Shown here: piece after piece, positions 1 through 23,979 of the stretch
Numbering within the stretch: the first letter of the stretch is position 1
How the letters are laid out: each line of letters begins with the position of its first letter
Source: Parvibaculaceae bacterium
Lineage (GTDB): Bacteria; Pseudomonadota; Alphaproteobacteria; RS24; CBDDDD01
NCBI GenBank assembly: GCA_965226465.1
Contig: OZ245362.1
Span: 112,232-176,231 of the forward strand
Length of the DNA: 64,000 nt
Direction: 5' to 3'
Position numbers and translations under genes: made by a program
The notes under the pieces: generated by a model
Database searches by the model: none
What the model was told of the DNA's origin: nothing
The model's input: the letters and a program-made list of their open reading frames with translations, nothing else

Positions 1-2
1 CG

Positions 3-341
3 GTGGAAATAGGCATTGGGGAACGTAAAAAAACCCATAAATGGGATTTGGGGTGCGATAATAAAAAGATTCTGATTGAGTGCAAATCTCATAAATGGAC
101 GGAAAGCGACAAGATACCATCTGCCAAGCTTACCACATGGGACCAAGCCATGTATTACATGCACCTTGCTCCCGATGAATATAAAAAAATATTCTGTTGC
201 CTGAAGGATATGAGTATCAAAAGGCGTAAAACATTAGCTGATTATTATATAGAAAAACACGGTCATCTTATTCCCCCCAATGTTGAAATATGGGAGTTTT
301 GTGATAAATCCAAGACAGCGGAGAAAAAATATCCCCTCTAG
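3..341 (+). CDS. hypothetical protein, possible PD-(D/E)XK-fold nuclease; probably 5'-truncated by the window edge
   Basis: The ORF is open to the window start, so the GTG at 3 may be internal. It is AT-rich relative to its neighbours. The string DLGCDNKKILIECKSHKW resembles a D...E-x-K nuclease core. No family recognised by eye. Confidence 0.35.
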   Translation: MEIGIGERKKTHKWDLGCDNKKILIECKSHKWTESDKIPSAKLTTWDQAMYYMHLAPDEYKKIFCCLKDMSIKRRKTLADYYIEKHGHLIPPNVEIWEFCDKSKTAEKKYPL

Positions 342-403
342 CCCTTCAGCCGAGTAAAGGTTGAGGAAAGTACCGTCATTATAACATGCGCCAAAGGCGC
401 ATG

Positions 404-603
404 CCCCGCCCACACCCCCCTGACCCCCCTTCGCTCAGAACACTTTGTGTTCCTGCGCGCAAAAAGCTAGACCCCAGCAAAGCTGGGGAGCTTTTTTCAC
501 CCTTTTTTAATAGGCATGTAATGCCTATTAAAAAATAGGGGGGGATAAGGAGTGCGCCCTAAGGGGCGCGCATTTTTTATGGAGTGGAGGGAATGCTCCT
601 AGT
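404..603. repeat. mosaic multi-hairpin intergenic repeat, copy A (full)
   Basis: Near-identical to 19707-19878 and partly to 26827-27079 and 5004-5054. Modules: C-rich tract 404-429, hairpin gaacac-ttt-gtgttc, hairpin ccccagc-aaa-gctgggg plus T-run, 33-nt palindrome 503-535 (ttttttaataggcat gta atgcctattaaaaaa), hairpin gcgccc..gggcgc plus T-run, then ggagtggagg tail. Confidence 0.85.
472..497 (+). terminator. intrinsic-terminator-like hairpin inside repeat copy A
   Basis: Stem ccccagc / loop aaa / gctgggg, followed by agctttttt. Lies downstream of ORF 3-341. Confidence 0.45.
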
Positions 604-654
604 CTTCCAGTCAAGCGGGTGTGTGCCTTAAAGGGGGGCTTTTTTATTTGCTGG

Positions 655-2955: not shown

Positions 2956-3171
2956 GGCGTCCTCCCTCATAATAATACTATAGGGTGGGGTTTTCTGTGG
3001 CAAGGGGAATCTTATTATTGGATAGTATATATAAAGACGGGAATCTGCTTGGATTGGGCGGTTTTCCAAGTTTTAGGGTTTTTCAGAGAGCTTATATAAA
3101 GTGTGGACAAAAGGAAAATTCATAAAAATTGGTTTTGAAGAAAATATACTATACATGCTAGTCTGTGATTG

Positions 3172-4038
3172 ATGAATTTTTGGAATAAAAATGATGAAGT
3201 TACTTTTTTTGAAAGAGCATTAAAAAAATTTGCTCCTCCTGAAAAACTATTTTATGAACTTCCAGAAGGCTATTTTGCCTATATTCCCAAAAAACAAAGT
3301 GCCGAAGGTAAGGTGGTGCAGGCTAGAAATGCACTAATTGGAAGCTATACCGAGAAATGGTGTAAGGATTTTTTTCAACCTATTGCTGACCAATTGAAAT
3401 TATTTCCGGTAAATGGTGTTGTCTGCCAAGAATTGGGCTTAAACAATACAACAGATGCAGATTTGGCATTTTGTACAACAAAAAGCAAAGAACAATCGGC
3501 AGAAAATATAAAGCTAATCTTTGAAGTTAAAATGGGAATAGTCAATAATTATTCTTATAATGATAAGAGCGATAAATTAAAATTTGAAGGAGATTATAAG
3601 ACCCATAAGGGAAATCCTTCCATTCTCCGATCTGATTCAATGTTGAAAGCAATAGGAAAATCTATAAATATTCGTGTATCAGGAGCTAAATCCGCTAAAA
3701 TCCCAATTGTTATTTTAGGAAACAGCCCAATAGCAGAAAGCTATATAAAGAAGGTTGATTTCCTGAAACAGGCAGGAGTTGTTCAGGGATTTATTTCGCT
3801 TTATCCAAATCCAACCGCTCAATATATTCAAAAAACTCCAAATAAGGGGTTTCAAACATTTAATGATTATTCTGCATTGAAGAGTCATATATCAGAATTG
3901 ATTCAGGCAGATATGAACTTCTTCTCATCAATGTTGCCTAAGCAAAAACTTGGAGAAATGATTACAATTTCAGCCAAAGAAGAAACCGAGCTAGCCAAAG
4001 CAGAGAGATTTCTCCAATTGCTGGATGAGGAAAGCTGA
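3172..4038 (+). CDS. putative type II restriction endonuclease (PD-(D/E)XK-like)
   Basis: AT-rich ORF directly upstream of, and overlapping by 1 nt (TGATG), a DNA methyltransferase. DADLAFC...IKLIFEVKMG gives a D...E-V-K motif. No named family recognised. Confidence 0.5.
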   Translation: MNFWNKNDEVTFFERALKKFAPPEKLFYELPEGYFAYIPKKQSAEGKVVQARNALIGSYTEKWCKDFFQPIADQLKLFPVNGVVCQELGLNNTTDADLAFCTTKSKEQSAENIKLIFEVKMGIVNNYSYNDKSDKLKFEGDYKTHKGNPSILRSDSMLKAIGKSINIRVSGAKSAKIPIVILGNSPIAESYIKKVDFLKQAGVVQGFISLYPNPTAQYIQKTPNKGFQTFNDYSALKSHISELIQADMNFFSSMLPKQKLGEMITISAKEETELAKAERFLQLLDEES

Positions 4039-4946
4039 TGAAAAAAAACGGTACAACAACAAGTGCATTTGGAACAAGCGGGCGAGTTAATCATAATTCT
4101 GAAAAGTTTTATGAATCAAAGCTGTATAAAAATCTATCACAAAGCAAAGAATGCTCCAAAGAGGTTAATGAATTTCCTGCAGAATTTATGAATAAAAATA
4201 TTCTTGGAAGTGCAGAAGATATGTCAATGATTCCAGATAATTCCCTGCATCTCATGATTACCTCCCCGCCATATAATGTCTCAAAAGAATATGATGATGA
4301 TTTGTCATTGGAAGAATATTTGGAAATGCTAACAAAGGTTTTTGCGGAAACATATAGAGTGCTCGTTAATGGCGGTAGGGCATGTGTTAATGTAGCCAAT
4401 TTAGGAAGAAAACCTTACATACCACTTAGTGATCATATTTCTAAAATAATGATTGATTTAGGGTTTAATATGAGAGGAGAAATAATTTGGAATAAGGCAG
4501 CAAGTGCCGCCCCTTCTACTGCTTGGGGTAGCTGGATGTCCGCTTCTAACCCGACATTAAGGGATGTGCATGAATATATTTTAGTCTTTTCTAAAGGGGA
4601 GTATAAAAGAGAAAGAAAAAAAGAGGAAAAAGAAGTCAAAAAGAATACGATTTCAAAAGAGGACTTCATGGAATGGACCAAATCAATCTGGACCTTTAAT
4701 GCTGAGTCTGCTCGCAGAATTGGACATCCAGCCCCATTTCCTATCGTGCTTCCTGCTCGATTGATTGATTTATTTTCTTTTACTGACGATATTATATTGG
4801 ACCCTTTTATGGGCAGTGGAACGACAGGGATTGCCGCTCTAGAATCTAATAGAAATTTTGTCGGCTTTGATACAAGTGAAGAATATATTGATTTAGCTGA
4901 AAAAAGATTATTGCCCTATAGAAGCTTATTAAAACTTGAAATATAG
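4038..4946 (+). CDS. DNA methyltransferase, N4-cytosine/N6-adenine family, beta-class motif order
   Basis: Motif IV is MITSPPYNV (SPPY). It precedes motif I, LDPFMGSGTTGIAA, near the C-terminus. Confidence 0.85.
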   Translation: MKKNGTTTSAFGTSGRVNHNSEKFYESKLYKNLSQSKECSKEVNEFPAEFMNKNILGSAEDMSMIPDNSLHLMITSPPYNVSKEYDDDLSLEEYLEMLTKVFAETYRVLVNGGRACVNVANLGRKPYIPLSDHISKIMIDLGFNMRGEIIWNKAASAAPSTAWGSWMSASNPTLRDVHEYILVFSKGEYKRERKKEEKEVKKNTISKEDFMEWTKSIWTFNAESARRIGHPAPFPIVLPARLIDLFSFTDDIILDPFMGSGTTGIAALESNRNFVGFDTSEEYIDLAEKRLLPYRSLLKLEI

Positions 4947-4976
4947 ACCCCAAGGCTTTGGCAGGAAAGTCTCCTT

Positions 4977-5001
4977 AGCCTCCAATCTATGCTTGGAGGC
5001 T
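4977..5001. terminator. 9-bp hairpin between convergent genes
   Basis: agcctccaa / tctatgc / ttggaggct, located between the methyltransferase (+) and the SMP-30 gene (-). Confidence 0.35.
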
Positions 5002-5003
5002 GG

Positions 5004-5054
5004 ATAGGGGGATAAGTGGTGCGCCCTTTGGGGGCGCATTTTTTTATTTATGGG
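5004..5054. repeat. mosaic repeat, partial copy D (terminal hairpin module only)
   Basis: atagggggataagtggtgcgccctttgggggcgcattttttt matches the gataaggagtgcgccct.aggggcgcgcatttttt module of copies A-C. The gcgccc/gggcgc hairpin plus T-run acts as a plus-strand terminator. Confidence 0.7.
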
Positions 5055-5056
5055 GG

Positions 5057-6006: not shown

Positions 6007-7500
6007 ATGAGAAAAATTTCTATTGCCTTGATTACCATTCTTGTCATGGGAACGGCGTATTCGCTGTTTGGCGATATTATCATTAGGAGCGAAAAGCCTA
6101 ATATATTATGGATCTATGTTGAGGATATGAATGATTGGATGGGGGCGTATGGTGATGATACCGTGCCGACACCCAATATTGATAGGCTTGCGGCTAAAGG
6201 GGTGCGGTTTGATAATGCGATTATGCCGTCTCCCGTTTGCTCGGTGACGAGGTCGGCGATTATTACTGGTGTTATGGCGAGCAATTTGGGGCTGCATAAT
6301 CATCGGTCTTCTCGTGCGCCCTCTGCACAGATTTATTTGCCGCCTAAGCATAAGACTATTCCTGAATTATTTAGGCAGGCGGGCTATGTTACGTTTAATC
6401 AGGGTAAGGATGATTATAATTTTGCTTATCAAAGGCAGAAGCTTTATTCCTTTGACCCGGGGGCGGATAAGATGAAAAAGCAATATGAGAAGTCTAAGCA
6501 TAAGGTGAAGGCGGGGAAGCGGTTTAAGTTGAAGGATTTGCCGAGAAATAAGCCGTTTTTTGGGCAGATACAGCTTAATGGGGGGAAGGATAAAGCCAAG
6601 CCCATTGTGAAGGTTTCGGCGGATAGTGTTGCGGGGAAGCTGCCGCCTTATTATCCTAATGCGCCTAGTTTTAGGAAGGCGTGGGCGCGCCATTATGAGC
6701 AGATTGCGATTACGGATTGGCGGGTTGGGAAAATTATTGAGGAGCTGAAGGCGGCGGGGCTTTATGAGAATACGGTCATCTTTTTCTTTACAGACCATGG
6801 CATGGTGTTGCCCCGCCATAAGCAGTTTCTTTATGAGGGGGGTATTCGGGTGCCGCTTGTGGTGAGCTGGGCGGGTAATGAAGGGGCACTTGCTGAGCGG
6901 GGGAAGGTGCGGGCGGATATTGTCAATGGGATTGATATTGGCACTTCATCGCTTGCCATTGCGGGGATTAATATTCCGAAATATATGGAGGGGGATGATG
7001 TTTTTGACCCTCATTATGAAGATAAGGCTTTTACCATCGCAACGCGTGACCGTCTGGATTATACTTTTGACCGTATACGGACGGTTCGGGGGGTGCGGTA
7101 TAAATATATTCGCAATTTCTTCCCTGAGCGGGCTTATTTGCAGCCGCAATATCGGGACTTGCACCCGAAGGCTTTTCCTTTTATGCCGGAGCTTAGGAAA
7201 TTACAAAAACAGGGGAGACTTAGCGCGGTGCAGGAGGCATTTCTGTCGCCTACCCGCCCTATTGAGGAGTTATATGATTTGCAAAACGACCCCCATGAAA
7301 CCAAGAATCTTGCTGGTGAGCGGCGGCACCGCAAAGTTCTTAAGGAATATAGGGAAGTTTTGGAGGATTGGATAAGGGCTTCTGATGATAAGGGGGAATA
7401 TCCTGAAAGTGATGTGGCGATGGCGGCGATTATTGGGCGATGGGGGGATATTTGCCAAAGCCCTGAGTGTAGGAATTATAGGTTGCGGCATGGGTTATAG
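6007..7500 (+). CDS. exported sulfatase (type I, formylglycine-dependent family)
   Basis: Signal peptide, then NILWIYVEDMNDW...PSPVCSVTRSAIITG (active-site C-x-x-x-R) and FFTDHG. Confidence 0.8.
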   Translation: MRKISIALITILVMGTAYSLFGDIIIRSEKPNILWIYVEDMNDWMGAYGDDTVPTPNIDRLAAKGVRFDNAIMPSPVCSVTRSAIITGVMASNLGLHNHRSSRAPSAQIYLPPKHKTIPELFRQAGYVTFNQGKDDYNFAYQRQKLYSFDPGADKMKKQYEKSKHKVKAGKRFKLKDLPRNKPFFGQIQLNGGKDKAKPIVKVSADSVAGKLPPYYPNAPSFRKAWARHYEQIAITDWRVGKIIEELKAAGLYENTVIFFFTDHGMVLPRHKQFLYEGGIRVPLVVSWAGNEGALAERGKVRADIVNGIDIGTSSLAIAGINIPKYMEGDDVFDPHYEDKAFTIATRDRLDYTFDRIRTVRGVRYKYIRNFFPERAYLQPQYRDLHPKAFPFMPELRKLQKQGRLSAVQEAFLSPTRPIEELYDLQNDPHETKNLAGERRHRKVLKEYREVLEDWIRASDDKGEYPESDVAMAAIIGRWGDICQSPECRNYRLRHGL

Positions 7501-8329
7501 AGGGTTTTTCTTGGCATTGGTGTTTTTTGTTGCGGCTCCTGTTTATGCGGCTTTTGAGCCTGAGCAGGGGGGGTATCGTTTGGTGTGGAGTGATGAGTTT
7601 GATTGTAAAAGCCGTCCTGACCCGAAAAATTGGGACTATGAGAAGGGGTTTGTCCGAAATCATGAGTTGCAGTATTATCAGGAGGATAATGCTTCTTGTA
7701 AGGATGGGAAGCTTGTCATTGAGGGGAAGCGGGATAAAATTAAAAATCCGAGCTATCGGCGGAATAGTAAAAATTGGAAAGAGCAGAGGCGGTTTTCTGA
7801 ATATAGCTCCGCTTCTATTAATACTAAGGATAAGCATTATTGGAAATATGGGCGCTTTATTGTCCGTGCAAAGGTGACCGACTTGGCGGGGCTTTGGCCT
7901 GCGATTTGGTTTCTTGGCAAGGAGGGCGAGTGGCCAGCACGGGGGGAGATTGATTTGATGGAGTATTTTCAGAATAAAATTCATGCCAATGTCGCCTCCG
8001 GCACGAAAAAAAGATGGACACCGAAATGGGACGCCAATGCCAGACGCATCGCCTCGTTTCATGACCCTAGCTTTGACAAAAAATTTCATATTTGGCGCAT
8101 GGATTGGGACGAGCAATCCATAAAGCTATATATGGATGATATTTTGCTCAATGAAACCCTGCTTAAAGACACCGTTAATCCTGATGGTGTTTTTCCTCGT
8201 CATCCGTTTCACCAGCCCCATTATATTTTGCTGAACTTTGCCATTGGGGGCAAGGCGGGCGGTGACCCTTCACAAACACCTTTTCCACAATATTATGAGG
8301 TTGATTATGTTCGGATTTATCAAAAATAA
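7490..8329 (+). CDS. glycoside hydrolase family 16
   Basis: Catalytic E-x-D-x-x-E motif (GEIDLMEY). Signal peptide MGYRGFFLALVFFVAAPVYA. I place the start at ATG 7490, overlapping the upstream sulfatase stop; the track start at 7385 would lie inside that gene. Confidence 0.8.
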   Translation: MGYRGFFLALVFFVAAPVYAAFEPEQGGYRLVWSDEFDCKSRPDPKNWDYEKGFVRNHELQYYQEDNASCKDGKLVIEGKRDKIKNPSYRRNSKNWKEQRRFSEYSSASINTKDKHYWKYGRFIVRAKVTDLAGLWPAIWFLGKEGEWPARGEIDLMEYFQNKIHANVASGTKKRWTPKWDANARRIASFHDPSFDKKFHIWRMDWDEQSIKLYMDDILLNETLLKDTVNPDGVFPRHPFHQPHYILLNFAIGGKAGGDPSQTPFPQYYEVDYVRIYQK

Positions 8330-11300
8330 GGCTGCTTTTTTGGTGGTTTTTCTGCTTTTGGGGGGCGGGGTTCAGGCGGCGGCTGATTGGGAAAACCCTG
8401 AGATTATCGGGGTGAATAAGGAGCCTGCTCATGCGCATATTGAGCCTTTTGCGGATGGGGGGCGTGCATTGGAGCGGGGAAGCTCGGAGCGTATGCAGTC
8501 GCTGAATGGGAAGTGGCGGTTTCATTGGGTGGGGAAGCCTGCTGAGCGTCCTGTCCATTTTTATAAGACCAGCTATGATGTTAGCGATTGGGCGGAAATT
8601 GATGTGCCGGGCAATTGGCAGACGCAGGGGTTTGGCACGCCTATTTATACGAATATTACCTATCCTTTTTTGAGGGAAGAGCCTTATGTGACGAAGGAGC
8701 CGCCTGCTCTTTATACGGCGTATACGGATAGAAATCCTGTTGGGTCGTATAAGAAGCGGTTTATGGTGGAGCCTGCTTTGCGGGGGAAGGAGGTTTTTCT
8801 TAAATTTGAGGGGGTGAAGTCGGCTTTTTATCTTTGGGTGAATGGGGAGAAGGTTGGGTATAGTCAGGGGTCTATGACTCCTGCGGAGTTTCATATTACG
8901 GAGTTTTTGAAAGCGGGGGAAAATGAGATTGCGGTGGAGGTTTATCGCTGGTCGGATGGGAGCTATTTGGAAGACCAGGATATGTGGCGGTTGAGCGGGA
9001 TTTTTCGCGATGTCAATCTGATTGCGCGCCCGAAAAGTTATATTGAGGATTATCAGATTGCGACCACACTGCTTAACAATTATCGCAATGCGAAGCTGGC
9101 GGTGGCGGTGAAGCTTAGGAATTTGGGGGGCGGGGAGGTGAAGAGGCGGCTTATTCTTTCCTTGTTTTCGCCGGAGGGGAAGGTTTTGAAAAAAACGACG
9201 GCGAGTATTGCGCTTGCTCCGAAAAGCAGGGGTGAGGCTATGCTGAAGCTGTCGCTTAGAAATGTGAAGCTGTGGTCGGCGGAAAACCCGCATCTTTATC
9301 CGTTGCTTATTACGCTTGCTGATGAGAATAAAAAGCCGCTGGAGCATATTGCTTGGCGGCATGGAATGCGTGAGATTAAAATTGAGGATAGGCGGCTTTT
9401 TGTCAATGGGCAGTCCATAAAGATTAAGGGGATTAACCGCCATGAACATCACCCGCGCATGGGGCGGCATGTGGATGTGGAGACGATGCGGCTTGATTTG
9501 AAATTGCTGAAGCAGGGTAATTTTAATCTGGTGCGGCTCAGCCATTATCCTAATGACCCGAAATGGTATGCGCTGGCGGATGAATATGGGATGTATCTGA
9601 TGGATGAAGCCAATCAGGAATCGCATGATTATCGGCGCACGCCGAAAGTTTTGGGCGATGCGCCGAAATGGCGAAAGGCTCATATTGACCGGGCGGTTTC
9701 TATGGTGCAACGGGCTAAAAATCATGCCTCCATTATTTTTTGGTCGCTGGGGAATGAGGGGGCGAAGGGGAAAAACTTTCATGCTATGAGGCGGGCGGTG
9801 CTTGCTATTGACGGCTCGCGTCCGATTTTTTCTGATACGGATCAGAGCGCATCCGATATGGTGGATGGGAACTATCCGAGCATAAAGAGCTTGGCGGGGT
9901 ATTTTAAGGAGGCGGAAGAGGCGGGAATGCCGCTTTTTATGCGGGAATATGCCCATGCTATGGGGAATAGTCTGGGCAATTTTAAGGAGCATTGGGACGC
10001 TATTTATGGCAATCCTCATCATCTGGGGGGGGCGATATGGGATTGGGTTGACCAGGGGCTGGCGCGGGTGAAAAATACGGCGATGGTTAGCTATGGGGAT
10101 AATCCGACAAGGCTTTCCTTAGACCATGAGCGGGAAGTTTGGGCGTATGGGGGGGATTTTAATGATTTTCCTAATGATGGGGAGTTTTTGTTGAACGGGG
10201 TTGTCTCGCCTGATAGGAAGCCTTATCCGTCTTATTTTGAAGCCAAGAAGATTATGCAGAATATTCGCTTTGAGGAGGGGGGGGCGCCTAATCAGATTAT
10301 GGTTACCAATCTTTTTGATTTTACTAATCTGAGCCGTTTTACTCTGAAATGGAAGCTGTTGCAGGAGGGGAAAATAGTAGAGGAGGGAAGCTTGCCGCTT
10401 GCGCTTGCGCCCAAGCAGAGCATTGGGGTTCGGGTGCCATATAGCCTTTCGCGGGTGAGCGAGGGGCGGGAGGCTCAGCTGGTTTTATCGGCGCATTTGC
10501 GCGAAGACACAAAATGGGCGGATAGGGGATATGAGATTGCTAATGCCGAATTTTTGGTGCGTCCTTTTTCTTATGCGGGTGCGGTTGAGGCTGGTGGCAA
10601 GAAGCTCCGTGTAAAGAGGGAAGACGGCTCTATCATTATTCATGGGGGGAAGTTTAGTTTTGTCTTTGATGCGGAAGGGGGGGTTTTGCGGCAAGTCATG
10701 GAGGGGAAGCGGGAGCTACTTGCACAACCGCTTGAGCCTTATTTTTGGAAGCCTGCGAATAATAATCAGACGCGTAATAAATATGGCGAGCGGTTTATTC
10801 GCTGGCTGGAGGCGGGTGCGCTGAGAAAGGTGCGGAAGGTGAGCCTTATTGAGCATGCACCGAACCTTGTGGAGATTGTCGCTTTCATGACACTGCCCGT
10901 TAATGATGCCGATTATGTGCTTCGCTATCGGGTGAATGGTAAGGGGGAGATTGCGGTGGCGGCGGAATATAAGCCGCAAGGGGGTGGGGTGAAATATATG
11001 CCGAAATTTGGCATGCGGCTTGCGCTGAACCCTTCGCTTTCGGATATAAAATGGTATGGCAGGGGTCCGTTTGAGAACTATCCTGATAGGAAGCATGCGG
11101 CACTTATTGGGGAATATGAAAGTTCGCTTTCTGGGTTTCAGGTGCCTTATATTTCTGCTCAGGATAGTACCAATCGGTCTGATGTGCGGTGGTTTTCTTT
11201 TGGTGACCGTAAGAATACAATTACAATTATTGGGGCACAGCCGCTTAATTTTCGTGCGTGGTCCTATCTGGAAAAAGATATTATTTCGCCGCCTAATATG

Positions 11301-11510
11301 ATGAGGAGGGCGAAACAAAAACGAGATATTGGGGCGGCGTGGCGCAAGCATTATTATGATTTGCCCAAGCGCGCACTTATTAATGTCAATATTGACCTCG
11401 CTATTCATGGGGTGGGGGGTGATAATAGTTGGGGGGCGCGCACCATGTTGAAATATCATGTGCCTGCCGATAAACCGCTCCATTATGGCTTTACGATGCG
11501 CTTTGAATAA
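8307..11510 (+). CDS. glycoside hydrolase family 2 beta-galactosidase (LacZ-like), exported
   Basis: [31 protein letters not shown] and GGAIWDWVDQ strings matching LacZ catalytic regions. Signal peptide MFGFIKNKAAFLVVFLLLGGGVQA, with gagg located 6 nt upstream of ATG 8307. Confidence 0.85.
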   Translation: MFGFIKNKAAFLVVFLLLGGGVQAAADWENPEIIGVNKEPAHAHIEPFADGGRALERGSSERMQSLNGKWRFHWVGKPAERPVHFYKTSYDVSDWAEIDVPGNWQTQGFGTPIYTNITYPFLREEPYVTKEPPALYTAYTDRNPVGSYKKRFMVEPALRGKEVFLKFEGVKSAFYLWVNGEKVGYSQGSMTPAEFHITEFLKAGENEIAVEVYRWSDGSYLEDQDMWRLSGIFRDVNLIARPKSYIEDYQIATTLLNNYRNAKLAVAVKLRNLGGGEVKRRLILSLFSPEGKVLKKTTASIALAPKSRGEAMLKLSLRNVKLWSAENPHLYPLLITLADENKKPLEHIAWRHGMREIKIEDRRLFVNGQSIKIKGINRHEHHPRMGRHVDVETMRLDLKLLKQGNFNLVRLSHYPNDPKWYALADEYGMYLMDEANQESHDYRRTPKVLGDAPKWRKAHIDRAVSMVQRAKNHASIIFWSLGNEGAKGKNFHAMRRAVLAIDGSRPIFSDTDQSASDMVDGNYPSIKSLAGYFKEAEEAGMPLFMREYAHAMGNSLGNFKEHWDAIYGNPHHLGGAIWDWVDQGLARVKNTAMVSYGDNPTRLSLDHEREVWAYGGDFNDFPNDGEFLLNGVVSPDRKPYPSYFEAKKIMQNIRFEEGGAPNQIMVTNLFDFTNLSRFTLKWKLLQEGKIVEEGSLPLALAPKQSIGVRVPYSLSRVSEGREAQLVLSAHLREDTKWADRGYEIANAEFLVRPFSYAGAVEAGGKKLRVKREDGSIIIHGGKFSFVFDAEGGVLRQVMEGKRELLAQPLEPYFWKPANNNQTRNKYGERFIRWLEAGALRKVRKVSLIEHAPNLVEIVAFMTLPVNDADYVLRYRVNGKGEIAVAAEYKPQGGGVKYMPKFGMRLALNPSLSDIKWYGRGPFENYPDRKHAALIGEYESSLSGFQVPYISAQDSTNRSDVRWFSFGDRKNTITIIGAQPLNFRAWSYLEKDIISPPNMMRRAKQKRDIGAAWRKHYYDLPKRALINVNIDLAIHGVGGDNSWGARTMLKYHVPADKPLHYGFTMRFE

Positions 11511-11556
11511 GGGCTTGCGGTGGGGGGGGAAAGGTATAAAATAGGGGGTCTGTTGA

Positions 11557-14712
<3,156 letters not shown>

Positions 14713-14713
14713 C

Positions 14714-16120
14714 ATGAAAACCATTATTCATATTTTGCTTGTCGGGGTCATTGCTCTTTTTGCGGTGTCTGAGGTGCAAGCCAAGCGCAAAAAGCCTAAT
14801 CTTGTCCTTATACTGACGGATGACCAAGGCTATGCCGATGTTGGGTTTAATGGTAGCACCGAGATTAAGACGCCTAATATTGACCGTATTGCTTATGAGG
14901 GGGTGCGCTTTGATAGCGGATATGTGTCTTTTCCTGTCTGTGGTCCAAGTCGGGCGGGGCTTTTGACGGGGAGATATCAGGATAGGTTTGGCTTTATTCT
15001 GAACCCAAGCCCTGACCCTAAGGATAAAAAGGGGGGGCTTCCTAAGAGTGAGAAAAATATCGCTGAGGTGCTGAAGCCTGCGGGATATCGGAGCGCAATT
15101 TTGGGGAAATGGCATATGGGCTCGCACCCTATTTTTCATCCCAATCGGCGGGGCTTTGATTATTTCTTTGGGTTTCTGACCGGTGGGCATAAATATTTTC
15201 CTCATGCGCTGAAATATAATTCTGTGGAGGAGACGCTGCAAAAATGGGATTGGTATTCAACCAGAATCCTCAGAAATAATAAGCGGATTGATATTGACGA
15301 ATATCTTACCGATGAGATTTCCAATGAGGCGGTCGCCTTCATTAAGAGGGAAAAGAAAAAGCCCTTTTTTCTTTATGTCGCCTATAACGCTCCGCATGGA
15401 CCTTTGCAGGCAACGGAGAAATATCTCAAGCGATATAGCCATATTAAAAATAAGAAGCGGCGCACCTATGCCGCTATGGTGAGCGCCGTTGATGATGGGG
15501 TCGGGCGCATACTGGATGTGCTGGAAGAGGAGGGGCTGGATGAGGATACGATTGTGGTTTTCCTGTCTGATAATGGCGGTCCTGTTAAGAAAAATGCGTC
15601 CAATAATGGGGTATTGCGGGAGGGGAAAAGTAGCCCCTTTGAGGGTGGTATCAGAGTGCCTTTTGCGATGCGCTGGAAGGGGGTTATTCCAGCCGGCATG
15701 GATTATAAAGAGCCTGTTATTTCGCTGGATATTCTTGCTACCATTGTCGGGGAGGCTAAGGTCAGTATGCGGAGGAATAAAAAGCTGGATGGGGTCAATC
15801 TTGTTCCCTATTTGACGGGCAAGAAGAAAGGCTCGCCCCATGATATTTTATTTTGGAGGGGGTGGCGCAAGCAATTTAGCGTCGCCAGAATGGGGGAGGA
15901 TAAGATTGTCAATGTGAAGAAAAAACCCATGCTCTATAATTTGGAGGAGGATATTTCCGAAAAAAATGACCTCTATTGGCGGGATAAAAAAACCTATAAA
16001 GCCCTTAATGAAAAGCTGGATGAGTGGAAAAAGGACTTCTCGCCGCCTGCTTTTCAGGGGCTTTTGGGCTGGAAGGCTGAGAATAAAAAGAGGGGCAATA
16101 GGAATAAAGATAATGAGTAA
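14714..16120 (+). CDS. exported sulfatase (arylsulfatase family)
   Basis: Signal peptide, LILTDDQGYADVG, active site CGPSRAGLLTGRY, GKWHMG, FLSDNGG. ATG 14714 lies 2 nt after the upstream stop. The track start at 14525 is an overlap artefact. Confidence 0.85.
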   Translation: MKTIIHILLVGVIALFAVSEVQAKRKKPNLVLILTDDQGYADVGFNGSTEIKTPNIDRIAYEGVRFDSGYVSFPVCGPSRAGLLTGRYQDRFGFILNPSPDPKDKKGGLPKSEKNIAEVLKPAGYRSAILGKWHMGSHPIFHPNRRGFDYFFGFLTGGHKYFPHALKYNSVEETLQKWDWYSTRILRNNKRIDIDEYLTDEISNEAVAFIKREKKKPFFLYVAYNAPHGPLQATEKYLKRYSHIKNKKRRTYAAMVSAVDDGVGRILDVLEEEGLDEDTIVVFLSDNGGPVKKNASNNGVLREGKSSPFEGGIRVPFAMRWKGVIPAGMDYKEPVISLDILATIVGEAKVSMRRNKKLDGVNLVPYLTGKKKGSPHDILFWRGWRKQFSVARMGEDKIVNVKKKPMLYNLEEDISEKNDLYWRDKKTYKALNEKLDEWKKDFSPPAFQGLLGWKAENKKRGNRNKDNE

Positions 16121-16187
16121 AAGAGGTGTTCGCTTGACGGCAAAGGATTATCGGGTTAGCTTTATGAATAGAACTTCTGGGGGGAAA

Positions 16188-17594
16188 ATGAAATTTTTTA
16201 TCCATATTTTGCTTGTCGGGGCAATTGCCCTTTTTGCGGTGTCTGATGCTTCTGCCAAGCGCAAAAAGCCTAATCTTATTCTTATACTGACCGATGACCA
16301 AGGCTATGCCGATGTCGGGTTTAATGGCAGCACGGAGATTAAAACGCCCAATATTGACCGTATCGCTTATGAGGGGGCACGTTTTGATAGCGGATATGTG
16401 TCTTTTCCTGTCTGTGGTCCGAGCCGTGCGGGGCTTTTGACGGGGAGATATCAGGATAGGTTTGGCTTTATTCTGAACCCTTCTATTAATCCTGCTGACA
16501 AAGCGGGGCTTCCCAAAAGTGAGAAAAATATTGCTGAGGTGCTGAAGCCTGCGGGATATCGCACGGCTATTCTTGGGAAATGGCATATGGGGACGCATCC
16601 TGTTTTTCATCCTAATCGTCGGGGCTTTGATTATTTTTGGGGTTTTCTTTCGGGCGGGCATAGATATTTTCCCCATGAGCTGACATTGAACTCTCTTGAT
16701 GAGGTGGAAAGAGCTTGGCAATGGTATAGCACGCGAATCTTGCGAAATAATAAGCGGATTGATATTGACGAATATCTGACTGATGAGATTTCCAATGAGG
16801 CGGTCGCTTTCATTAAGAGGGAAAAGAAAAAGCCCTTCTTTCTTTATGTCGCCTATAATGCGCCCCATGCGCCTTTGCAGGCTACGGAGAAATATCTCAA
16901 GCGATTTAGTCATGTTGAGAATAAGAGGCGCAGAACCTATCTCGCTATGGTGAGTGCGGTTGATGATGGGGTCGGGCGCATTTTGGACACGTTGGAAGAG
17001 GAGGGGCTGGATGAGGATACGATTGTGGTTTTCCTTTCCGATAATGGCGGGGCGTTGAAGAAAAATGCTTCCGATAATGGCATATTGCGGGACGGCAAGG
17101 GTAGTCCCTTTGAGGGCGGTATCAGGGTGCCTTTTGCGATGCGCTGGAAGGGGGTTATTCCCGCTGGCTTGGATTATAAGCCTGCCGTTATTTCGCTTGA
17201 TATTCTTGCTACCATTGTCGGTGAGGCTAAGGTCAGTATGCGGAGGAATAAGAAGCTGGATGGGGTCAATCTCATTCCCTATCTGACGGGGAAGAAAAGG
17301 GGCGAGCCTCATGATATTTTATTCTGGCGGGGCTGGAATAGGAAATATACCGTTGCTAGGGCGGGGGGGGATAAGATTATTACCGCCAAGAAAACGCCTA
17401 TGCTTTATAATTTGGAGGAGGATATTTCCGAAAAAAATAATCTCTATCGGAAGAATAAAAAGCGTTATGAAAGCCTCAATGCAAAAGTGGAGGAGTGGAA
17501 AGAGGATTTCTCGCCGCCTATTTTTACCGGTCTTGGGGAATGGACGGGCAATAATAATAATAAAAAAAATAACAAGAAAAAGAAAAGGAGATGA
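16188..17594 (+). CDS. exported sulfatase, tandem paralogue of 14714-16120
   Basis: Most positions are identical by eye to the preceding sulfatase, with the same motifs. C-terminal tail NNNNKKNNKKKKRR. Start at ATG 16188 with ggggggaaa upstream. Confidence 0.85.
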   Translation: MKFFIHILLVGAIALFAVSDASAKRKKPNLILILTDDQGYADVGFNGSTEIKTPNIDRIAYEGARFDSGYVSFPVCGPSRAGLLTGRYQDRFGFILNPSINPADKAGLPKSEKNIAEVLKPAGYRTAILGKWHMGTHPVFHPNRRGFDYFWGFLSGGHRYFPHELTLNSLDEVERAWQWYSTRILRNNKRIDIDEYLTDEISNEAVAFIKREKKKPFFLYVAYNAPHAPLQATEKYLKRFSHVENKRRRTYLAMVSAVDDGVGRILDTLEEEGLDEDTIVVFLSDNGGALKKNASDNGILRDGKGSPFEGGIRVPFAMRWKGVIPAGLDYKPAVISLDILATIVGEAKVSMRRNKKLDGVNLIPYLTGKKRGEPHDILFWRGWNRKYTVARAGGDKIITAKKTPMLYNLEEDISEKNNLYRKNKKRYESLNAKVEEWKEDFSPPIFTGLGEWTGNNNNKKNNKKKKRR

Positions 17595-19144
17595 GTATGA
17601 TGCCGTTTGTTTTCAGAACTCTCGCTATTGCTCTCCTCTTGCCGTTGGTTTTTGCTTGCAAGGAGGAGGGCAAACCCATGCATGGCATGGGTAAGAAGCC
17701 CAATGTGGTTATTTTTTATATTGATGATTTGGGTTATGGTGACCTCGGCTCTTATGGTGCAAAGGGGGTTAAAACGCCCGAAATTGACCGCATTGCTAAG
17801 AAGGGTGTGCGCTTTACGGACGCTCATAGCTCGGCGGCTACCTGCACGCCAAGCCGATATTCCTTATTGACCGGCGAGCATGGCTTTCGTAGCAAAGCGG
17901 CTATTCTGCCGGGTGATGCGCCCGCTCTTATCCGTCCGGGCAAGCCGACATTGGCAACGCTTTTCAAAAAGGCGGGCTATCAAACTGCCGTCGTCGGCAA
18001 ATGGCATTTGGGGCTGGGCAATGGCAATGTCAATTGGAATAAGAAAGTCGCACCCGGTCCCTTGGAGATAGGGTTTGATTATAGTTTTCTGCTTCCTGCT
18101 ACGGGGGATAGGGTGCCGACGGTTTATCTGGATGGTCACCATGTGGTGAGCCTTGATAGGAAAGATCCGATTAAGGTTAGTTATCGGGGTAAGGTGGGCA
18201 AGCGTCCTACCGGTTTGGAGCGTCCTGACCTGCTGCGGGTCAAGGCGGATAAGCAACATAGTCAGACGATTATTAATGGTGTCAGTCGCATTGGCACGAT
18301 GGGTGGCGGTGAGAGTGCGCTGTGGGTGGATGAGGATTTCCCCGATATTTTTACCGAAAAAGCCGTGCAGTTTATGCGTGAAAATAAGGATAAGCCTTTT
18401 TTCCTTTTTCATTCCTATCATGATATTCATGTGCCGCGCTTGCCCCATCCGCGCTTTGAGGGGAAGTCCCGCATGGGTCCAAGGGGGGATGCGATTGTGC
18501 AGATGGATTGGATGACCGGTCAGATTATTCGTGAGCTGGAAAAGCTTGGGATTGCGGATAATACGCTTATTATTTTTACGAGCGATAATGGTCCTGTGCT
18601 GAATGATGGCTATGAGGATGAGGCGGTGGAGAAGCTTGGGAAGCATAAGCCTTGGGGTCCGTTTCGGGGGGGGAAATATAGTGCTTATGAGGCGGGAACC
18701 AGGGTGCCGACGATTGTGTATTGGCCCGGAACCATAAAGCCCAAAACCAGCAAGGTGCTGTTTTCGCAGATTGATATTTATGCATCGCTCGCCAAGCTTA
18801 TCGGCATTGAGCTTGAGGATGGCGAGGCGATGGATAGCATGGAGGTGCTGGATGTTATGCTCGGCAAAAAAGGGCGCGAGCGCAGGGAGCTTTTGGAGGA
18901 ATCGGTTGCGACCAATGCGCTCAGAGACGGCAAGTGGAAGTTTATTCCGATAACGCCTTCCAAGCGTAATCATGAGTTTCTGAAAAGGAAAAATATTGAG
19001 GGCGGCTTTAAGCCCTATCCGCAATTATATAATCTGGATAAGGATATTGGCGAGCGCAATAATCTCGCCGAGCAACACCCTGAGCGTGTTAAAGCTATGG
19101 CGGCGCGCATTAAGGATATTGTTAAAAATGGCTACTCCCGCTAG
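17591..19144 (+). CDS. sulfatase, probable lipoprotein
   Basis: Lipobox LVFAC. IFYIDDLGYGDLG, active site CTPSRYSLLTG, GKWHLG, FTSDNGP. ATGA overlap with the upstream stop. Confidence 0.85.
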   Translation: MSMMPFVFRTLAIALLLPLVFACKEEGKPMHGMGKKPNVVIFYIDDLGYGDLGSYGAKGVKTPEIDRIAKKGVRFTDAHSSAATCTPSRYSLLTGEHGFRSKAAILPGDAPALIRPGKPTLATLFKKAGYQTAVVGKWHLGLGNGNVNWNKKVAPGPLEIGFDYSFLLPATGDRVPTVYLDGHHVVSLDRKDPIKVSYRGKVGKRPTGLERPDLLRVKADKQHSQTIINGVSRIGTMGGGESALWVDEDFPDIFTEKAVQFMRENKDKPFFLFHSYHDIHVPRLPHPRFEGKSRMGPRGDAIVQMDWMTGQIIRELEKLGIADNTLIIFTSDNGPVLNDGYEDEAVEKLGKHKPWGPFRGGKYSAYEAGTRVPTIVYWPGTIKPKTSKVLFSQIDIYASLAKLIGIELEDGEAMDSMEVLDVMLGKKGRERRELLEESVATNALRDGKWKFIPITPSKRNHEFLKRKNIEGGFKPYPQLYNLDKDIGERNNLAEQHPERVKAMAARIKDIVKNGYSR

Positions 19145-19389
19145 TGGGTGGGGGTGGATTTTTTATTTGGTAAAATGGAATCCTTTAAGCGGTCTTCAAA
19201 GAGTTTGGTCATTTCATGTAATACTTTTTCATAAATATCATCCCAAAAATTGGAAACAAAGCTATCCTTGCCTCTGTTCGCTTTATAGGTAAAAACCATA
19301 AGGGGAACCATACCAGTTTTGATAAACTCCGAAGCGAGCCAGTCTTTAAGTTCTTTATTGGTAAGCATTTTTTTCATTTCATCTGTCAT
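19141..19389 (-). CDS. hypothetical small protein (82 aa)
   Basis: ATG at 19389 is preceded by aggaga with 5-nt spacing. AT-rich. Its stop overlaps the sulfatase stop (CTAG). The upstream part of track ORF 19141-19866 runs through structured and repeat DNA and is not credible. Confidence 0.45.
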   Translation of the reverse strand: MTDEMKKMLTNKELKDWLASEFIKTGMVPLMVFTYKANRGKDSFVSNFWDDIYEKVLHEMTKLFEDRLKDSILPNKKSTPTH

Positions 19390-19394
19390 TTCAT

Positions 19395-19640
19395 TCTCCT
19401 GTGTTGTTTTTAACGAAACGACACCAATGTCAAAACATTGGTGTCGGGGCGTTAAGAAGCCAGACAAAAGAATGGCTGCGGTGCTTTTACCGCAGGCGGC
19501 TATTTTATAACACCGCCACCCCAACTCTTGTTGAAGTGGCTTGTTTTGGGTGGTGCCATACCACCACTTTTGTCTGGGGTTCTTAAACCCCGAAACTGGA
19601 ATACCCAGTTCTGCCAATAATCTAGCACATAAGAAAATGA
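19395..19640 (-). ncRNA. candidate structured 5' leader / cis-regulatory RNA upstream of the 82-aa ORF
   Basis: An 11-bp long-range pairing (19460-19470 ccagacaaaag / 19567-19577 cttttgtctgg) encloses three local hairpins. Two further hairpins lie at 19576-19612. An 11-bp perfect hairpin at 19419-19446 is followed on the minus strand by tttcgtt, then the RBS. No known riboswitch consensus recognised. Confidence 0.3.
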
Positions 19641-19706
19641 AAATACAAAAAGAAAAAGCGGTGGCTTCATTTATAGCGCCCGCCTTTGGCGGGCTTCCCC
19701 GCCCAC

Positions 19707-19878
19707 ACCCCCCTAACCCCCCTTCGCTCGGAACACTTCGTGTTCCTGCGCGCAAAAAGCTAGACCCCAGCAAAGCTGGGGAGCTTTTTTCACCCTTTTT
19801 TAATAGGCATGTAATGCCTATTAAAAAATAGGGGGGGATAAGGAGTGCGCCCTGAGGGGGGCGCATTTTTTATTTTTT
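19707..19878. repeat. mosaic multi-hairpin intergenic repeat, copy B (full)
   Basis: Near-identical to copy A over about 170 nt. The few substitutions fall mostly in loops or spacers (cctgacc/cctaacc, cactttgtg/cacttcgtg). Confidence 0.85.
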
Positions 19879-20232
19879 GCGGAGGAGGTGGGGGAGGGTT
19901 AGGGCGTCTTTTAGCCAGAATAGGCGGATAGCTAAGAAGGGGAGGGCTATGGTGATGCCGAGGATTGTGGTGCCTAGGGGGGTGAAGGGGTTGACGGTGC
20001 CGCCGGTGTAGAGGATGAAGCCCATTATGGCTAGGAGCTCGGGGGCGAGGAGTAGTAGTAGGAGGTAGTAGGGGTGGAGTCCGGGCATGATGCCTAGTTG
20101 GAGGCATAGGAGGGTGAAGGTGGCGGTGAAGTATAGGAGGGCGCCTTTTTTGTCGCCGGTGTAGAGGCGGTGGGCGCCGAAGCGGCCTAGAAATAGCCAG
20201 AGGAGATAGGCGGTTATTGTTCGTTTTATCAT
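19870..20232 (-). CDS. TM2-domain membrane protein
   Basis: AYLLWLFLGRFGAHRLYTGD matches the TM2 signature, and several TM helices follow. The start is uncertain: ATG 20232 gives the usual short N-terminus, while the track start at 20331 adds a P-rich extension. Confidence 0.65.
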   Translation of the reverse strand: MIKRTITAYLLWLFLGRFGAHRLYTGDKKGALLYFTATFTLLCLQLGIMPGLHPYYLLLLLLAPELLAIMGFILYTGGTVNPFTPLGTTILGITIALPFLAIRLFWLKDALTLPHLLRKK

Positions 20233-20282: not shown

Positions 20283-20310
20283 TTGACATTGGGGAGTTTC
20301 CGTTTATAAA
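20283..20310 (+). promoter_or_regulatory. candidate sigma70 promoter for the 23S-5S-tRNA unit
   Basis: TTGACA (20283-20288), 16-nt spacer, TATAAA (20305-20310). About 360 nt upstream of the mature 23S 5' end. Confidence 0.35.
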
Positions 20311-20649
20311 AGCCCAACACAATCCTTCCATCTTCGCTTATCGTGCAAAATGTGAAAGGGTGTGGGTTGCGTGAAATTTGGCAAAATATGCTGAAAACCG
20401 CGTAACATGCTGTTTGATATTGTGAAGAAGAGTGATATGCCTGGACTTCTTGTCCGCATGTAAGCCTATCAACTTATGTGCATATATTTATATATACCTA
20501 TATTTATATATAAAAGACTTGTAATGGGTGCCTGTTCCAAATAGGTGCCGAGCAAACCCACGCTTTTTGGGTATATCCAATTAAGGTCATCCGCTTATGT
20601 GAGAATAAGCGGATAATAATCGTAATCATTGCATCATTTCTATCCAAGA

Positions 20650-20670: not shown

Positions 20671-21096
20671 TAATCAAGCGTTTAAGAGCATTTGGTGAAT
20701 GCCTTGGCGTTGAGAGGCGATGAAGGACGTGGCACGCTGCGATAAGCTACGGGGAGTTGTGAGCAAACTCTGATCCGTAGATTTCCGAATGGGGAAACCC
20801 AGCCCTTCGGGGCTATCTTCTGCTGAATTAATAGGCAGAAGAGGCAAACCCGGGAAACTGAAACATCTAAGTACCCGGAGGAAAGGACATCAACCGAGAC
20901 TCCGTTAGTAGTGGCGAGCGAACGCGGACCAGGCCAATGCCTGTTATTTTGTAACCAGAAGGAGCTGGGAAGCTCCGCCAGAGTCGGTAATAGCCCGGTA
21001 TGGGTATGCAAAATAATAGGATCCGAGTAAGGCGGGACACGTGAAATCCTGTCTGAATATGGGGGGACCACCCTCCAAGCCTAAGTACTCCTCAAC

Positions 21097-21142
<46 letters not shown>

Positions 21143-21700
21143 AATGAGGGGAGTGAAATAGTCCCTGAAACCGAATGCTTACAATCAGTTGGAGCCTCTT
21201 TTGAGGTGACAGCGTACCTTTTGTATAATGGGTCAGCGACTTAGTCCGGCGTGCGAGCTTAAACCGTTAGGTGTAGGCGTAGCGAAAGCGAGTCTGAACA
21301 GGGCAACCTAGTTCGTCGGATTAGACCCGAAGCCGAGTGATCTAGCCATGGCCAGGTTGAAGGTGCAGTAACATGCACTGGAGGACCGAACCCACCTATG
21401 TTGAAAAATGGGGGGATGAGCTGTGGCTAGGGGTGAAAGGCCAATCAAACTCGGATATAGCTGGTTCTCCGCGAAAACTATTTAGGTAGTGCGTCGCGTG
21501 AATACTCTCGGGGGTAGAGCACTGGATGGGCTAGGGGGCTTCACCGCTTACCAAACCTAACCAAACTCCGAATACCGAGAAGTAATGCGTGGCAGACACA
21601 CTATGGGTGCTAAGGTCCATAGTGGAAAGGGAAACAGCCCGGACCGTCGTCTAAGGTCCCTAAGTTATGGCTAAGTGGGAAAGGATGTAGGGGTTCCAAA

Positions 21701-21749
<49 letters not shown>

Positions 21750-21825
21750 CAGCTCACTGGTCTAATTAAGAACCCCCGCGCCGAAGATATATCGGGGCTA
21801 AAGCCATACACCGAAGACACGGGTG

Positions 21826-22519
21826 CTTGAGATCGTTTACTATAGTTAGTAAAGTAAAAAATAAAATGTGGGAAAACCTTATTCCTTCCCTTGCATTATT
21901 TCTGCCTTTTCCATAAGGTCAAAGCAGAATAAGCAAGAGAAGGGGAGCAATACGCTCATGGGTTCAGAAAAAGAAAAAAATACTGAGAGCGCAATCAAAA
22001 AGAGATTGCAGTCTATTGCCAAAACACTTCAGGAAAATAATTTTGAAGTGAAATTTGGGCAAGGAAGTGAAGGCAATCGCCTTTATCTCAAAAGTGTATT
22101 TCGTAAAAATATCTCTTCTGACTCCTTTAGCTGGCGTTTTGATAATTTTGATGTCTGGATAACAGAAACAGATGATGGGAAGGATATGCTCATTTGCAGA
22201 TTTAAGCATGATGTGGATAGTCCAGCCTGTTTTAAAGAATATGAAACGCTTAAAGAAAAAATAAGCGAGCGGATAATGAGGGATATAAAAGCAGAAACAG
22301 GAATTAAAGTTTGCTTTGAGAAGAGAACAGGATATCAAGCAGTGTCTTTTGATGATATTGCGAAGATGGTTTTTCTGCTGATAGTTGGAGGAATGCTAAT
22401 CATATCTTTTGATGGATTTTACAGTAATCTTTTAGGAGGTTTTCTTGTTTTCATAAGCTTCATGTTTTTTCTTACCTACGCCATAAGTTATATCAAAAAC
22501 TATAGTAATCGGTCTCAAG
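21826..22519 (+). other. 23S rRNA intervening sequence (IVS), helix 45 site
   Basis: Conserved 23S sequence stops at ...ccgaagacacgggtg and resumes at cgcggtagcggagcgttccgtaagcc. The 694-nt AT-rich insert is bounded by the 22-nt inverted repeat 21826-21847 / 22498-22519 (one G.U pair and one mismatch). Confidence 0.8.
21891..21919 (+). promoter_or_regulatory. candidate internal sigma70 promoter inside the IVS
   Basis: TTGCAT, 17-nt spacer, TAAGGT. About 40 nt upstream of the IVS ORF start. Confidence 0.25.
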
Positions 22520-22527: not shown

Positions 22528-22686
22528 CGGAGCGTTCCGTAAGCCAGTGAAGGCGATTTGTAAGAATTGCTGGAGGTATCGGAAGTGAGAATGCTGACAT
22601 GAGTAACGATAAGGAGGGTGAAAAACCCTCCCGCCGAAAGTCCAAGGGTTCCTGCCCAATGTTAATCAGGGCAGGGTTAGTCGGCA

Positions 22687-22722
<36 letters not shown>

Positions 22723-23080: not shown

Positions 23081-23187
<107 letters not shown>

Positions 23188-23446: not shown

Positions 23447-23493
<47 letters not shown>

Positions 23494-23615: not shown

Positions 23616-23670
<55 letters not shown>

Positions 23671-23945: not shown

Positions 23946-23979
<34 letters not shown>

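Follow-up and report, generated by a model that had tools for sequence, protein, structure and literature searches.

Elements of the BIME and REP type are extragenic, often lie between convergent genes, and are composite with variable module content. Together with NIME, Correia and BOX elements, BIMEs have been described as composite small interspersed repeats (Croucher et al., PMC3049150). BIME and REP sequences contain GC-rich hairpins that are able to attenuate transcription and to protect mRNA 3' ends; the BOX element of Streptococcus pneumoniae is a lineage-restricted, structured repeat of the form boxA-boxB(n)-boxC that likely affects co-transcribed genes; and NIME and Correia elements are composite intergenic repeats of 70-200 bp (PMC3049150). 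REPINs are defined by inverted REP doublets (PMC3116915). Rhizobium-specific intergenic mosaic elements (RIME) are named in PMC2873474, which cites Osteras, Stanley and Finan (1995, J Bacteriol 177:5485) for them. Here we describe a repeat in a 64-kb stretch of DNA from a Parvibaculaceae bacterium (assembly GCA_965226465.1, contig OZ245362.1, positions 112,232 to 176,231; hereafter the window), where four intergenic sites hold copies, named A to D, of one non-coding element built from modules named M1 to M6. On the best reading, the element is akin in kind to BIME, BOX and NIME, yet no member of the family of REP sequences and their REP-associated tyrosine transposases (RAYT), and it represents an instance of a well-known kind of repeat rather than a new system; the sequence family itself is undescribed. 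We assign a probability of about 0.5 to the proposal that it is a lineage-specific composite interspersed repeat, which acts as a terminator or insulator and provides mRNA 3'-end hairpins at the boundary between acquired and convergent native genes.

Modules and copies of the repeat

Each copy can be read as a colinear chain drawn from six modules, comprising a C-rich head, three to four GC-rich hairpins and one AT palindrome (Table 1). The order M1-(M2-M3)-M4-M5-(M6) is constant in copies A, B and C, every module copy is on the + strand, and the flanks of the four copies are unrelated. Copy A (404-580) and copy B (19697-19873) are 97% identical over 177 nt (E=6e-84), and the identity between A and C is 88% over 123 nt, as determined by a repeat search and blastn. 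When up to three mismatches were allowed, the module patterns gave 3, 5, 3 and 2 matches in the window against a shuffled expectation of 0.0-0.2, and the observed number was reached in none of 100 shuffles. The GCGCCC module, M5, is present in five copies, and nhmmer profiles of M5 and M6 revealed no diverged extra copies of either module in the window. The GC content of the element is 0.51-0.58. The left junctions of the heads read CATG/CCCC, GCTT/CCCC and TCTT/CCCC (the slash marks the junction), whereas the right ends are variable and modular, not fixed.

The repeat had been noticed in a first-pass annotation made from the letters of the window, and much of that description holds. The modules that it listed are all present as written, A and B had been called near-identical over about 170 nt, and the picture of a chain of independent hairpin modules that are present, absent or duplicated in fixed order between unrelated flanks is confirmed. 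The four sites are likewise real, but copy B starts at 19697 rather than 19707, and copy A runs on to about 654 through M6, a separate hairpin module that had been missed, M1-M5 being as described. Copy C was correctly said to lack the two middle hairpins (M2 and M3, a 66-nt block) and to have an M4 palindrome with the centre TGC between intact arms; the unit doubled in this copy is M5-M6, a direct tandem and the only reiterated unit. Copy D, which had been taken for the last module alone, is indeed a lone M5 but may extend to the left as far as a hairpin at 4977-5001. This hairpin has TAGCC...GGCTGG in common with the M6-to-M5 junction of copy C and may be a diverged M6-like unit, its nhmmer match not being significant (E=1.1).

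Table 1. Copies of the repeat, their modules and the features that border them, in window coordinates
Feature	Position	Strand	Description
Copy A	404-654	+	M1-M2-M3-M4-M5-M6; fullest copy
Copy B	19697-19880	+	M1-M2-M3-M4-M5; without M6
Copy C	26827-27079	+	M1-M4-M5-M6-M5-M6; without M2 and M3
Copy D	5004-5056	+	M5 alone
M1	404-436 in A	+	C-rich head, CCCCGCCCACACCCCCCTRRCCCCCCTYCG; G-quadruplex motif when read on the minus strand
M2	437-453 in A	+	Weak hairpin GAACAC-TTY-GTGTTC; -5.4 kcal/mol, z=-2.3; A and B only
M3	461-497 in A, 19754-19790 in B	+	AAAAAGCT-AGA-CCCCAGC-AAA-GCTGGGG-AGCTTTTTT; A and B only
M4	503-535 in A, 19796-19828 in B	+	33-nt perfect AT-rich palindrome TTTTTTAATAGGCAT-GTA-ATGCCTATTAAAAAA
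M4 in copy C	26860-26892	+	Centre TGC
M5 in copy A	538-578	+	G7 run and spacer, hairpin GTGCGCCC-TAAG-GGGCGCGC (552-571), T6 run (573-578); -17.6 kcal/mol
M5 in copy B	Hairpin 19845-19865, T-run 19866-19871	+	-18.4 kcal/mol
M5 hairpins in copy C	26909-26928 and 26995-27018	+	
M5 of copy D	Hairpin 5020-5038	+	TAGGGGGATAAGTGG, hairpin TGCGCCC-TTTGG-GGGCGCA, T7 run, ATTTATGGGGG
M6 in copy A	579-654	+	Begins ATGGAGTGGAGGGAATGCTCCTAG; hairpin degenerate, no significant fold (z=0.1)
M6 hairpin, first unit of C	26961-26985	+	CCCCCTA-G-CCA-AGC-TGG-G-TAGGGGG
M6 hairpin, second unit of C	27050-27074	+	CCCTCTC-G-CCA-AGT-TGG-A-GAGAGGG
Hairpin directly upstream of copy D	4977-5001	+	AGCCTCCAA-TCTATGC-TTGGAGGCT
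norZ stop codon	655-657	minus	Right of copy A
SMP-30/gluconolactonase stop codon	5057-5059	minus	Right of copy D
TM2-domain gene stop codon	19870-19872	minus	Inside the M5 T-run of copy B
mutY stop codon	27080-27082	minus	Right of copy C
Low-GC segment left of A	1-403		GC 0.407; 112-aa open reading frame (3-341, +), no family match
Low-GC segment left of D	3070-5003		GC 0.352; putative restriction enzyme and type II methyltransferase
Low-GC segment left of B	19158-19696		GC 0.403; 82-aa minus-strand open reading frame (19141-19389)
Low-GC segment left of C	24478-26826		GC 0.398; Z1/ResIII 'type II helicase' protein

The hairpins of M3, M4 and M5 are much more stable than shuffled sequence (z -3.8 to -5.0). 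M3 has a symmetric hairpin (-19.2 kcal/mol, z=-4.0) that follows an A-tract and precedes a T-tract; M4 folds at -14.8 kcal/mol (z -4.8 to -4.9), and the M5 folds range from -16 to -18.4 kcal/mol (z -3.8 to -5.0) around the consensus of a G7 run with spacer, GTGCGCCC-loop-GGGSGCGC and a T6-7 run. The M6 consensus is ATGGAGTGGRGG..TAG followed by the hairpin CCCYCTM-G-CCA-AGY-TGG-R-KAGRGGG, which folds at -15.7 and -19.2 kcal/mol in the two units of copy C (z -2.2 and -1.1). The M6 of copy A (579-654) is homologous to both of these units and ends in a small hairpin, GCCTTAAAGGGGGGC (625-639), and a T-run. Over whole copies, the folds have z=-6.9 for A (region 370-660) and z=-4.5 for C.

Differences between copies had been placed mostly in loops and spacers, with selection on the stems as the proposed cause. 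In the alignment of A, B and C, two of the eleven variable columns fall in stems, which make up 51% of the columns (binomial P=0.029), but between A and B alone two of the five differences are in stems, with no stem bias. The arms of M4 are intact at 15 of 15 positions in all three copies, while its centre differs at all three bases in C. A comparison of both M6 hairpins in C shows compensatory double changes at two of their seven outer pairs and no broken pair. Together, the changed M4 centre between intact 15-nt arms, the compensatory pairs and the distribution of variable columns only weakly suggest selection on stems.

Several further observations concern the sequence around and within the modules. 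GC hairpins with 3-nt loops lie directly upstream of two of the heads, CATGCGCC-AAA-GGCGCATG (385-403) at copy A and GCCCGCC-TTT-GGCGGGC (19669-19685) at copy B. They are unrelated in sequence, both follow a similar CATT(T)ATA motif, and they may be older, diverged modules of the chain. A conserved ATGGAGTGG motif follows M5 and opens seven-codon ATG...TAG frames at 579-602 (MEWRECS), 26937-26960 (MEWRKCF) and 27026-27049 (MEWGGCF), which start immediately after the T-run in two cases, A and the first unit of C, and after an intervening ATTT in the third. We considered whether these ATGGAGTGG...TAG frames are coding and rejected this, because they have no ribosome-binding site, are located after a T-run and vary by non-synonymous changes. 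The three M1 heads are the only minus-strand G-quadruplex motifs of the window. The + strand is G-rich throughout (G 29.4%, C 19.7%), with a positive GC skew even across minus-strand genes; it has 96 runs of at least six G and 42 of at least seven, compared with 10 and 1 for C, and six of the ten runs of at least six C are in element heads.

Terminator anatomy at the boundary between low-GC and native genes

M3 and M5 each combine a GC-rich stem-loop with an immediate T-run, as intrinsic terminators do. A consensus scan of the window, in which strong sites were those with at least six G-C pairs and then an unbroken T-run, made ten strong calls, all within 1-27.2 kb and eight of them in elements. 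M3 of copies A and B, called on each strand, accounts for four of the eight, and M5 for the rest, with all but one of its five copies called on the + strand. The eight lie at 552, 5018, 19765, 472, 26909 and 26995 (+ strand) and at 488 and 19781 (minus strand); the other two calls are at 19132 and 19446. The M5 of copy B was not flagged despite its stable fold and T6 run. Between 27.2 and 64 kb, terminator-like sites occur at the shuffled expectation (34 vs 30.1; 35 vs 30.4), and none there has at least six G-C pairs followed by an unbroken T-run. Since M3 is symmetric (A-tract, hairpin, T-tract), it could halt transcription from either side, and M5 could stop transcription of the + strand.

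The position of the copies follows a rule on both sides. On the right, each of the four copies ends within 0-20 nt of a stop codon, read as TTA on the + strand, that closes a minus-strand gene whose GC content is native; on the left, all four adjoin a low-GC segment, the mean GC content of the window being 0.49. According to a fine GC scan, these segments are the principal stretches of low GC content outside the rRNA genes in the first 27 kb, and they were probably acquired. The methyltransferase and the Z1 protein encoded there have only distant matches among plasmid proteins (24-40% identity), and the 112-aa open reading frame (ORF) beside copy A possibly carries a nuclease motif, by our own reading of its sequence. 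Where native genes converge elsewhere in the window, their ends overlap or abut, with neither a spacer nor an element, and the region from 28 to 64 kb is made up of tightly packed housekeeping genes and contains no element. The preferred reading is that the elements would insulate the two sides from each other, so that transcription of the acquired genes would not run on antisense into the native gene, and vice versa. In this compact genome with overlapping convergent genes, they carry almost all strong terminator-like sites of the window. If the pattern holds genome-wide, the family would clearly exemplify a repeat that insulates horizontally acquired genes in portable form, or one that serves as their integration site, and it would offer a practical marker of acquired DNA in this lineage.

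Side observations were made in the same regions. One low-GC ORF (61344-61991, about 0.35, 215 aa; region 61.3-62.2 kb) is an exception to the association between low GC content and the element, as no element is adjacent to it; it sits among housekeeping genes and has no Pfam or PADLOC match. The convergent 3' overlaps or abutments are at 42111-42127, 47729-47733, 54723-54747 and 58710-58717, without terminator-like structure. Given the near-chance frequency of terminator-like sites and the overlapping convergent genes, it may be asked by what means transcripts are terminated in this genome. Just upstream of the 82-aa ORF near copy B there is a perfect palindrome with 12-bp arms, CGACACCAATGT-CAAA-ACATTGGTGTCG (19419-19446), which could be an operator or a terminator.

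The copies could alternatively represent small RNA genes or cis-acting RNA elements, either 3'-untranslated-region regulators or antisense RNAs directed against the convergent 3' end, in which case they would not be a DNA-level repeat. The stable predicted structures and the compensatory pairs of M6 are consistent with such a role, the terminators could set discrete 3' ends, and the elements abut the 3' ends of convergent genes. However, the consensus scan found no promoter-like site inside any copy, no Rfam family matched the elements at its gathering threshold (best scores of 22-24 bits vs thresholds of 50-55), module content varies between copies, a perfect palindrome such as M4 is more typical of a DNA-level feature, and the short frames (ATG...TAG) that follow M5 vary in sequence and lack a ribosome-binding site. 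We regard an RNA-level identity as rather improbable.

A number of points weigh against the insulator proposal. Termination at the elements is predicted from anatomy alone. There is no + strand gene upstream of copy B, so its + strand terminators have no obvious target, and copies C and D, which lack M3, present no terminator-like site to a minus-strand gene that runs into the element. A view centred on terminators gives no role to the C-rich head and the AT palindrome. A search of the translated element against 1.84 billion representative proteins gave 0 matches. Finally, just four loci were found, all at most 27 kb apart and none in the remaining 37 kb, and searches of public collections with the exact M4 pattern returned chance matches only (9 in the genome, 31 in the metagenome and 0 in the viral collection), none of which has the bases that flank M4 in the element. 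If the source genome were in the genome collection with just this window masked, it would follow that there is no further copy bearing M4 and that the family is local. As all four loci are inside 27 kb of accessory-rich DNA, a purely local family is a live possibility, and the dispersal of the family across the whole genome may be false.

Spread of the copies and genomic context

The distribution of variants among the copies is mosaic. Copy A matches B across M1-M5, the M5 variant of A and its M6 are common to the first unit of C, and the M5 variant of B is common to the second unit of C and to D. This pattern points to an exchange of modules between copies by recombination or gene conversion. 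For the composite repeat that we favor, the origin may then be explained by copying of the element itself without its surroundings, followed by such exchange, with the responsible enzyme not encoded in the window; further copies may exist outside the window.

The first-pass annotation had not recognised the sequence as a described family, and this is borne out by the searches: the Rfam matches that passed in the window were LSU rRNA, 5S rRNA and tRNA only, and no true match was obtained in any public collection searched. The M1, M3 and M5 patterns gave nothing in the viral collection, and copy A had no blastn match among plasmids and phages. The half-site of M4 was considered as a DNA-uptake-type signal and rejected, only two extra single copies being present in 64 kb.

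The positional rule could also arise if acquired cassettes used the element as a landing pad or had it as their own 3' end, with a recombinase encoded elsewhere recognising a folded or palindromic part (M4 or the head) and foreign DNA integrating on the head side, in loose analogy with attC or with the phage sites of dRS3/NIME. This explanation accounts for the low-GC segment on the head side and the native gene on the other in all four copies, for restriction or defence genes oriented like the element in three of the four segments, for the lack of both element and spacer in native convergent pairs without foreign DNA, and for an element that is unlike the cassettes in GC content and common to unrelated cassettes. 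On the other hand, among about 50 ORFs of the window scanned with Pfam or NCBIfam, none encodes an integrase, transposase (including Y1/HUH) or recombinase, and the attC cores RYYYAAC and GTTRRRY are on neither strand of any copy. The left junctions of the low-GC segments have no element copy or recognisable scar. The cassettes do not form a contiguous array: native genes lie between the copies, among them norZ, the 23S-5S rRNA genes and a sulfatase/glycosidase cluster. The 82-aa ORF beside copy B is oppositely oriented. With only four sites, the association could be explained equally well by repeats that are tolerated only in flexible regions, and we consider a landing pad unlikely. Somewhat more doubtful still is its specific form, in which the elements would be recombination sites of an undescribed cassette-capture system other than attC/IntI. 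There, low-GC cassettes, mostly with restriction or defence genes, would enter at the head, the element located after the native stop codon would supply insulating terminators, and recognition would involve the 33-nt palindrome or the G-quadruplex-motif head; we hold these details to be just as doubtful.

Another possible origin is a REP/REPIN-type or IS200/IS605-derived non-autonomous element, moved as single-stranded DNA by a single-copy Y1 HUH transposase (RAYT or TnpA) encoded elsewhere. The element is rich in hairpins and extragenic, there are no target-site duplications, as this mechanism predicts, and the 97% identity of A and B implies recent copying. Replication-coupled single-strand transposition is known for IS608 and ISDra2, and it would fit the single orientation of all copies on the G-rich strand, presumably the lagging-strand template. 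This bias has a two-sided P of 0.125, however, and is confounded with the direction of the neighbouring native genes, all four of which lie on the minus strand. The boundaries show no conserved tetranucleotide, the right ends vary by module, and no Y1 transposase was detected in the window. Membership of the REP/BIME group, to which the modular shuffling had been compared, is contradicted by the structure of the copies: there is no palindrome of 20-40 nt reiterated in inverted doublets or in alternating orientation, the hairpins of M2-M6 differ in sequence, and the inverted REP doublets that define REPINs (PMC3116915) are absent. In our estimate, transposition of the REP/RAYT type is improbable to much the same degree as a landing pad. 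By the usage of PMC3049150, the copies are composite small interspersed repeats.

A size of 180-250 nt, an intergenic location and strong secondary structure would also suit a classical miniature inverted-repeat transposable element (MITE), which has terminal inverted repeats as well as target-site duplications and would be moved by the transposase of an insertion sequence. The repeat search listed imperfect inverted matches between head and tail in A, B and C. These matches differ between copies, lie partly inside neighbouring genes and pair a C-run with a G-run. When the left half was aligned to the reverse complement of the right half, the score was 19 in all three copies, compared with shuffled controls with a mean of 15.6-16.3, a standard deviation of 2.3-2.7 and a maximum of 23-27, and thus no terminal inverted repeats are present. 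The same alignment led us to reject a whole-element palindrome. No target-site duplication or direct repeats flank the copies when the junctions are read directly, the element is GC-rich rather than AT-rich, and the window contains no insertion sequence, all of which makes a MITE highly improbable.

The host belongs to a barely sampled lineage of alphaproteobacteria, and composite interspersed repeats are common in general. The closest public relative is one fragmented metagenome-assembled genome labelled Parvibaculales (GCA_051010235.1), which contains a partial protein 90% identical to MutY; the next MutY match has 52% identity. Two of its contigs, L010 and L042, are 94.6-95% identical to positions 27297-30157 and 31958-38023 of the window, which are element-free regions, and show no modules. 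A profile built on eight mutually unrelated proteins from the flanks recovered only the SMP-30 protein of the window itself and NorB homologues (about 70% identity).

Other features of the window are worth recording. The 23S-5S-tRNA-fMet(CAT) genes (20672-24477) are unlinked to a 16S gene, none being located upstream; the 1.5 kb upstream of the 23S gene contains the TM2-domain gene and copy B, as well as a promoter-like TTGACA-17-TATAAA site at about 20284-20313. The 3' end of tRNA-Met is not repeated near copy C in a way that would delimit an island there. The 23S rRNA gene (20672-24097) spans 3426 nt compared with a model of 2925 positions, and its region 21500-22800 comprises 1301 nt over model positions 888-1507 only, which implies an insertion of about 500-700 nt. 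This insert, especially 21650-22650, includes the GC minimum of 0.34 and an ORF (21868-22527, 219 aa) without a Pfam match; Rfam reported no intron family in it, and it may be a long intervening sequence. The region 6007-19144 holds a cluster of the polysaccharide-utilisation type with four sulfatases, a GH16 enzyme and two GH2 beta-galactosidases. Some of its genes are recent tandem paralogues, namely the sulfatases at 14525-16120 and 15966-17594 (83-90% identical) and the GH2 pair at 8238-11510 and 11557-14712 (about 74-77% identical).

Comparison with described repeats and sites

Among the sites associated with acquired genes, the integron attC site is similar to the element in being structured, imperfectly conserved, placed at the 3' end of promoterless acquired genes and homogeneous within a single host despite unrelated cassettes. 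The differences are the missing attC cores, the lack of an intI gene in the window and of a contiguous array, and the native genes between the sites.

Filamentous prophages integrate at dRS3 repeats, and a Correia element can function as a promoter or a terminator. Both roles have a parallel in the element, the former in its position at a junction and the latter in its terminator anatomy. However, NIME units lie between inverted dRS3 repeats of 20 bp, and Correia elements are characterised by a TA duplication and by terminal inverted repeats of 26 bp; the element has none of these features.

RIME reportedly are alphaproteobacterial intergenic mosaics of large palindromes, which makes them alike to the element in both host class and architecture, whereas the host order differs; this comparison is by description only. 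We know of no description of RIME with an AT palindrome or a C-rich head.

With BOX the element has in common a fixed module order, a variable number of internal modules, extensive secondary structure, a likely influence on co-transcribed genes and confinement to one lineage. BOX differs in its terminal inverted repeats, which are similar to the ends of ISSpn2 and have no equivalent here, and in not being built around terminators. The two are set apart by description, and no sequence relationship is expected.

Elements of the BIME/REP type share the extragenic location, often between convergent genes, the variable composite modules and the GC-rich hairpins. REP/BIME families run to tens or hundreds of chromosomally dispersed copies, and their Y1 (HUH) transposase gene usually has REPs on its flanks. 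A BIME, in contrast, consists of one palindromic unit in alternating orientation with short linkers, whereas the element is composed of different hairpins in a single orientation; its 33-nt AT palindrome and C-rich head have no BIME counterpart, and no RAYT gene was seen in the window.

Finally, M3 and M5 resemble intrinsic terminators in their GC-rich stem, short loop and T-run, to which M3 adds the upstream A-tract of a bidirectional terminator. Ordinary terminators are not 80-97% identical across non-stem flanks at unrelated loci and are not chained with non-terminator modules, and it is in these two respects that the element stands apart from them.

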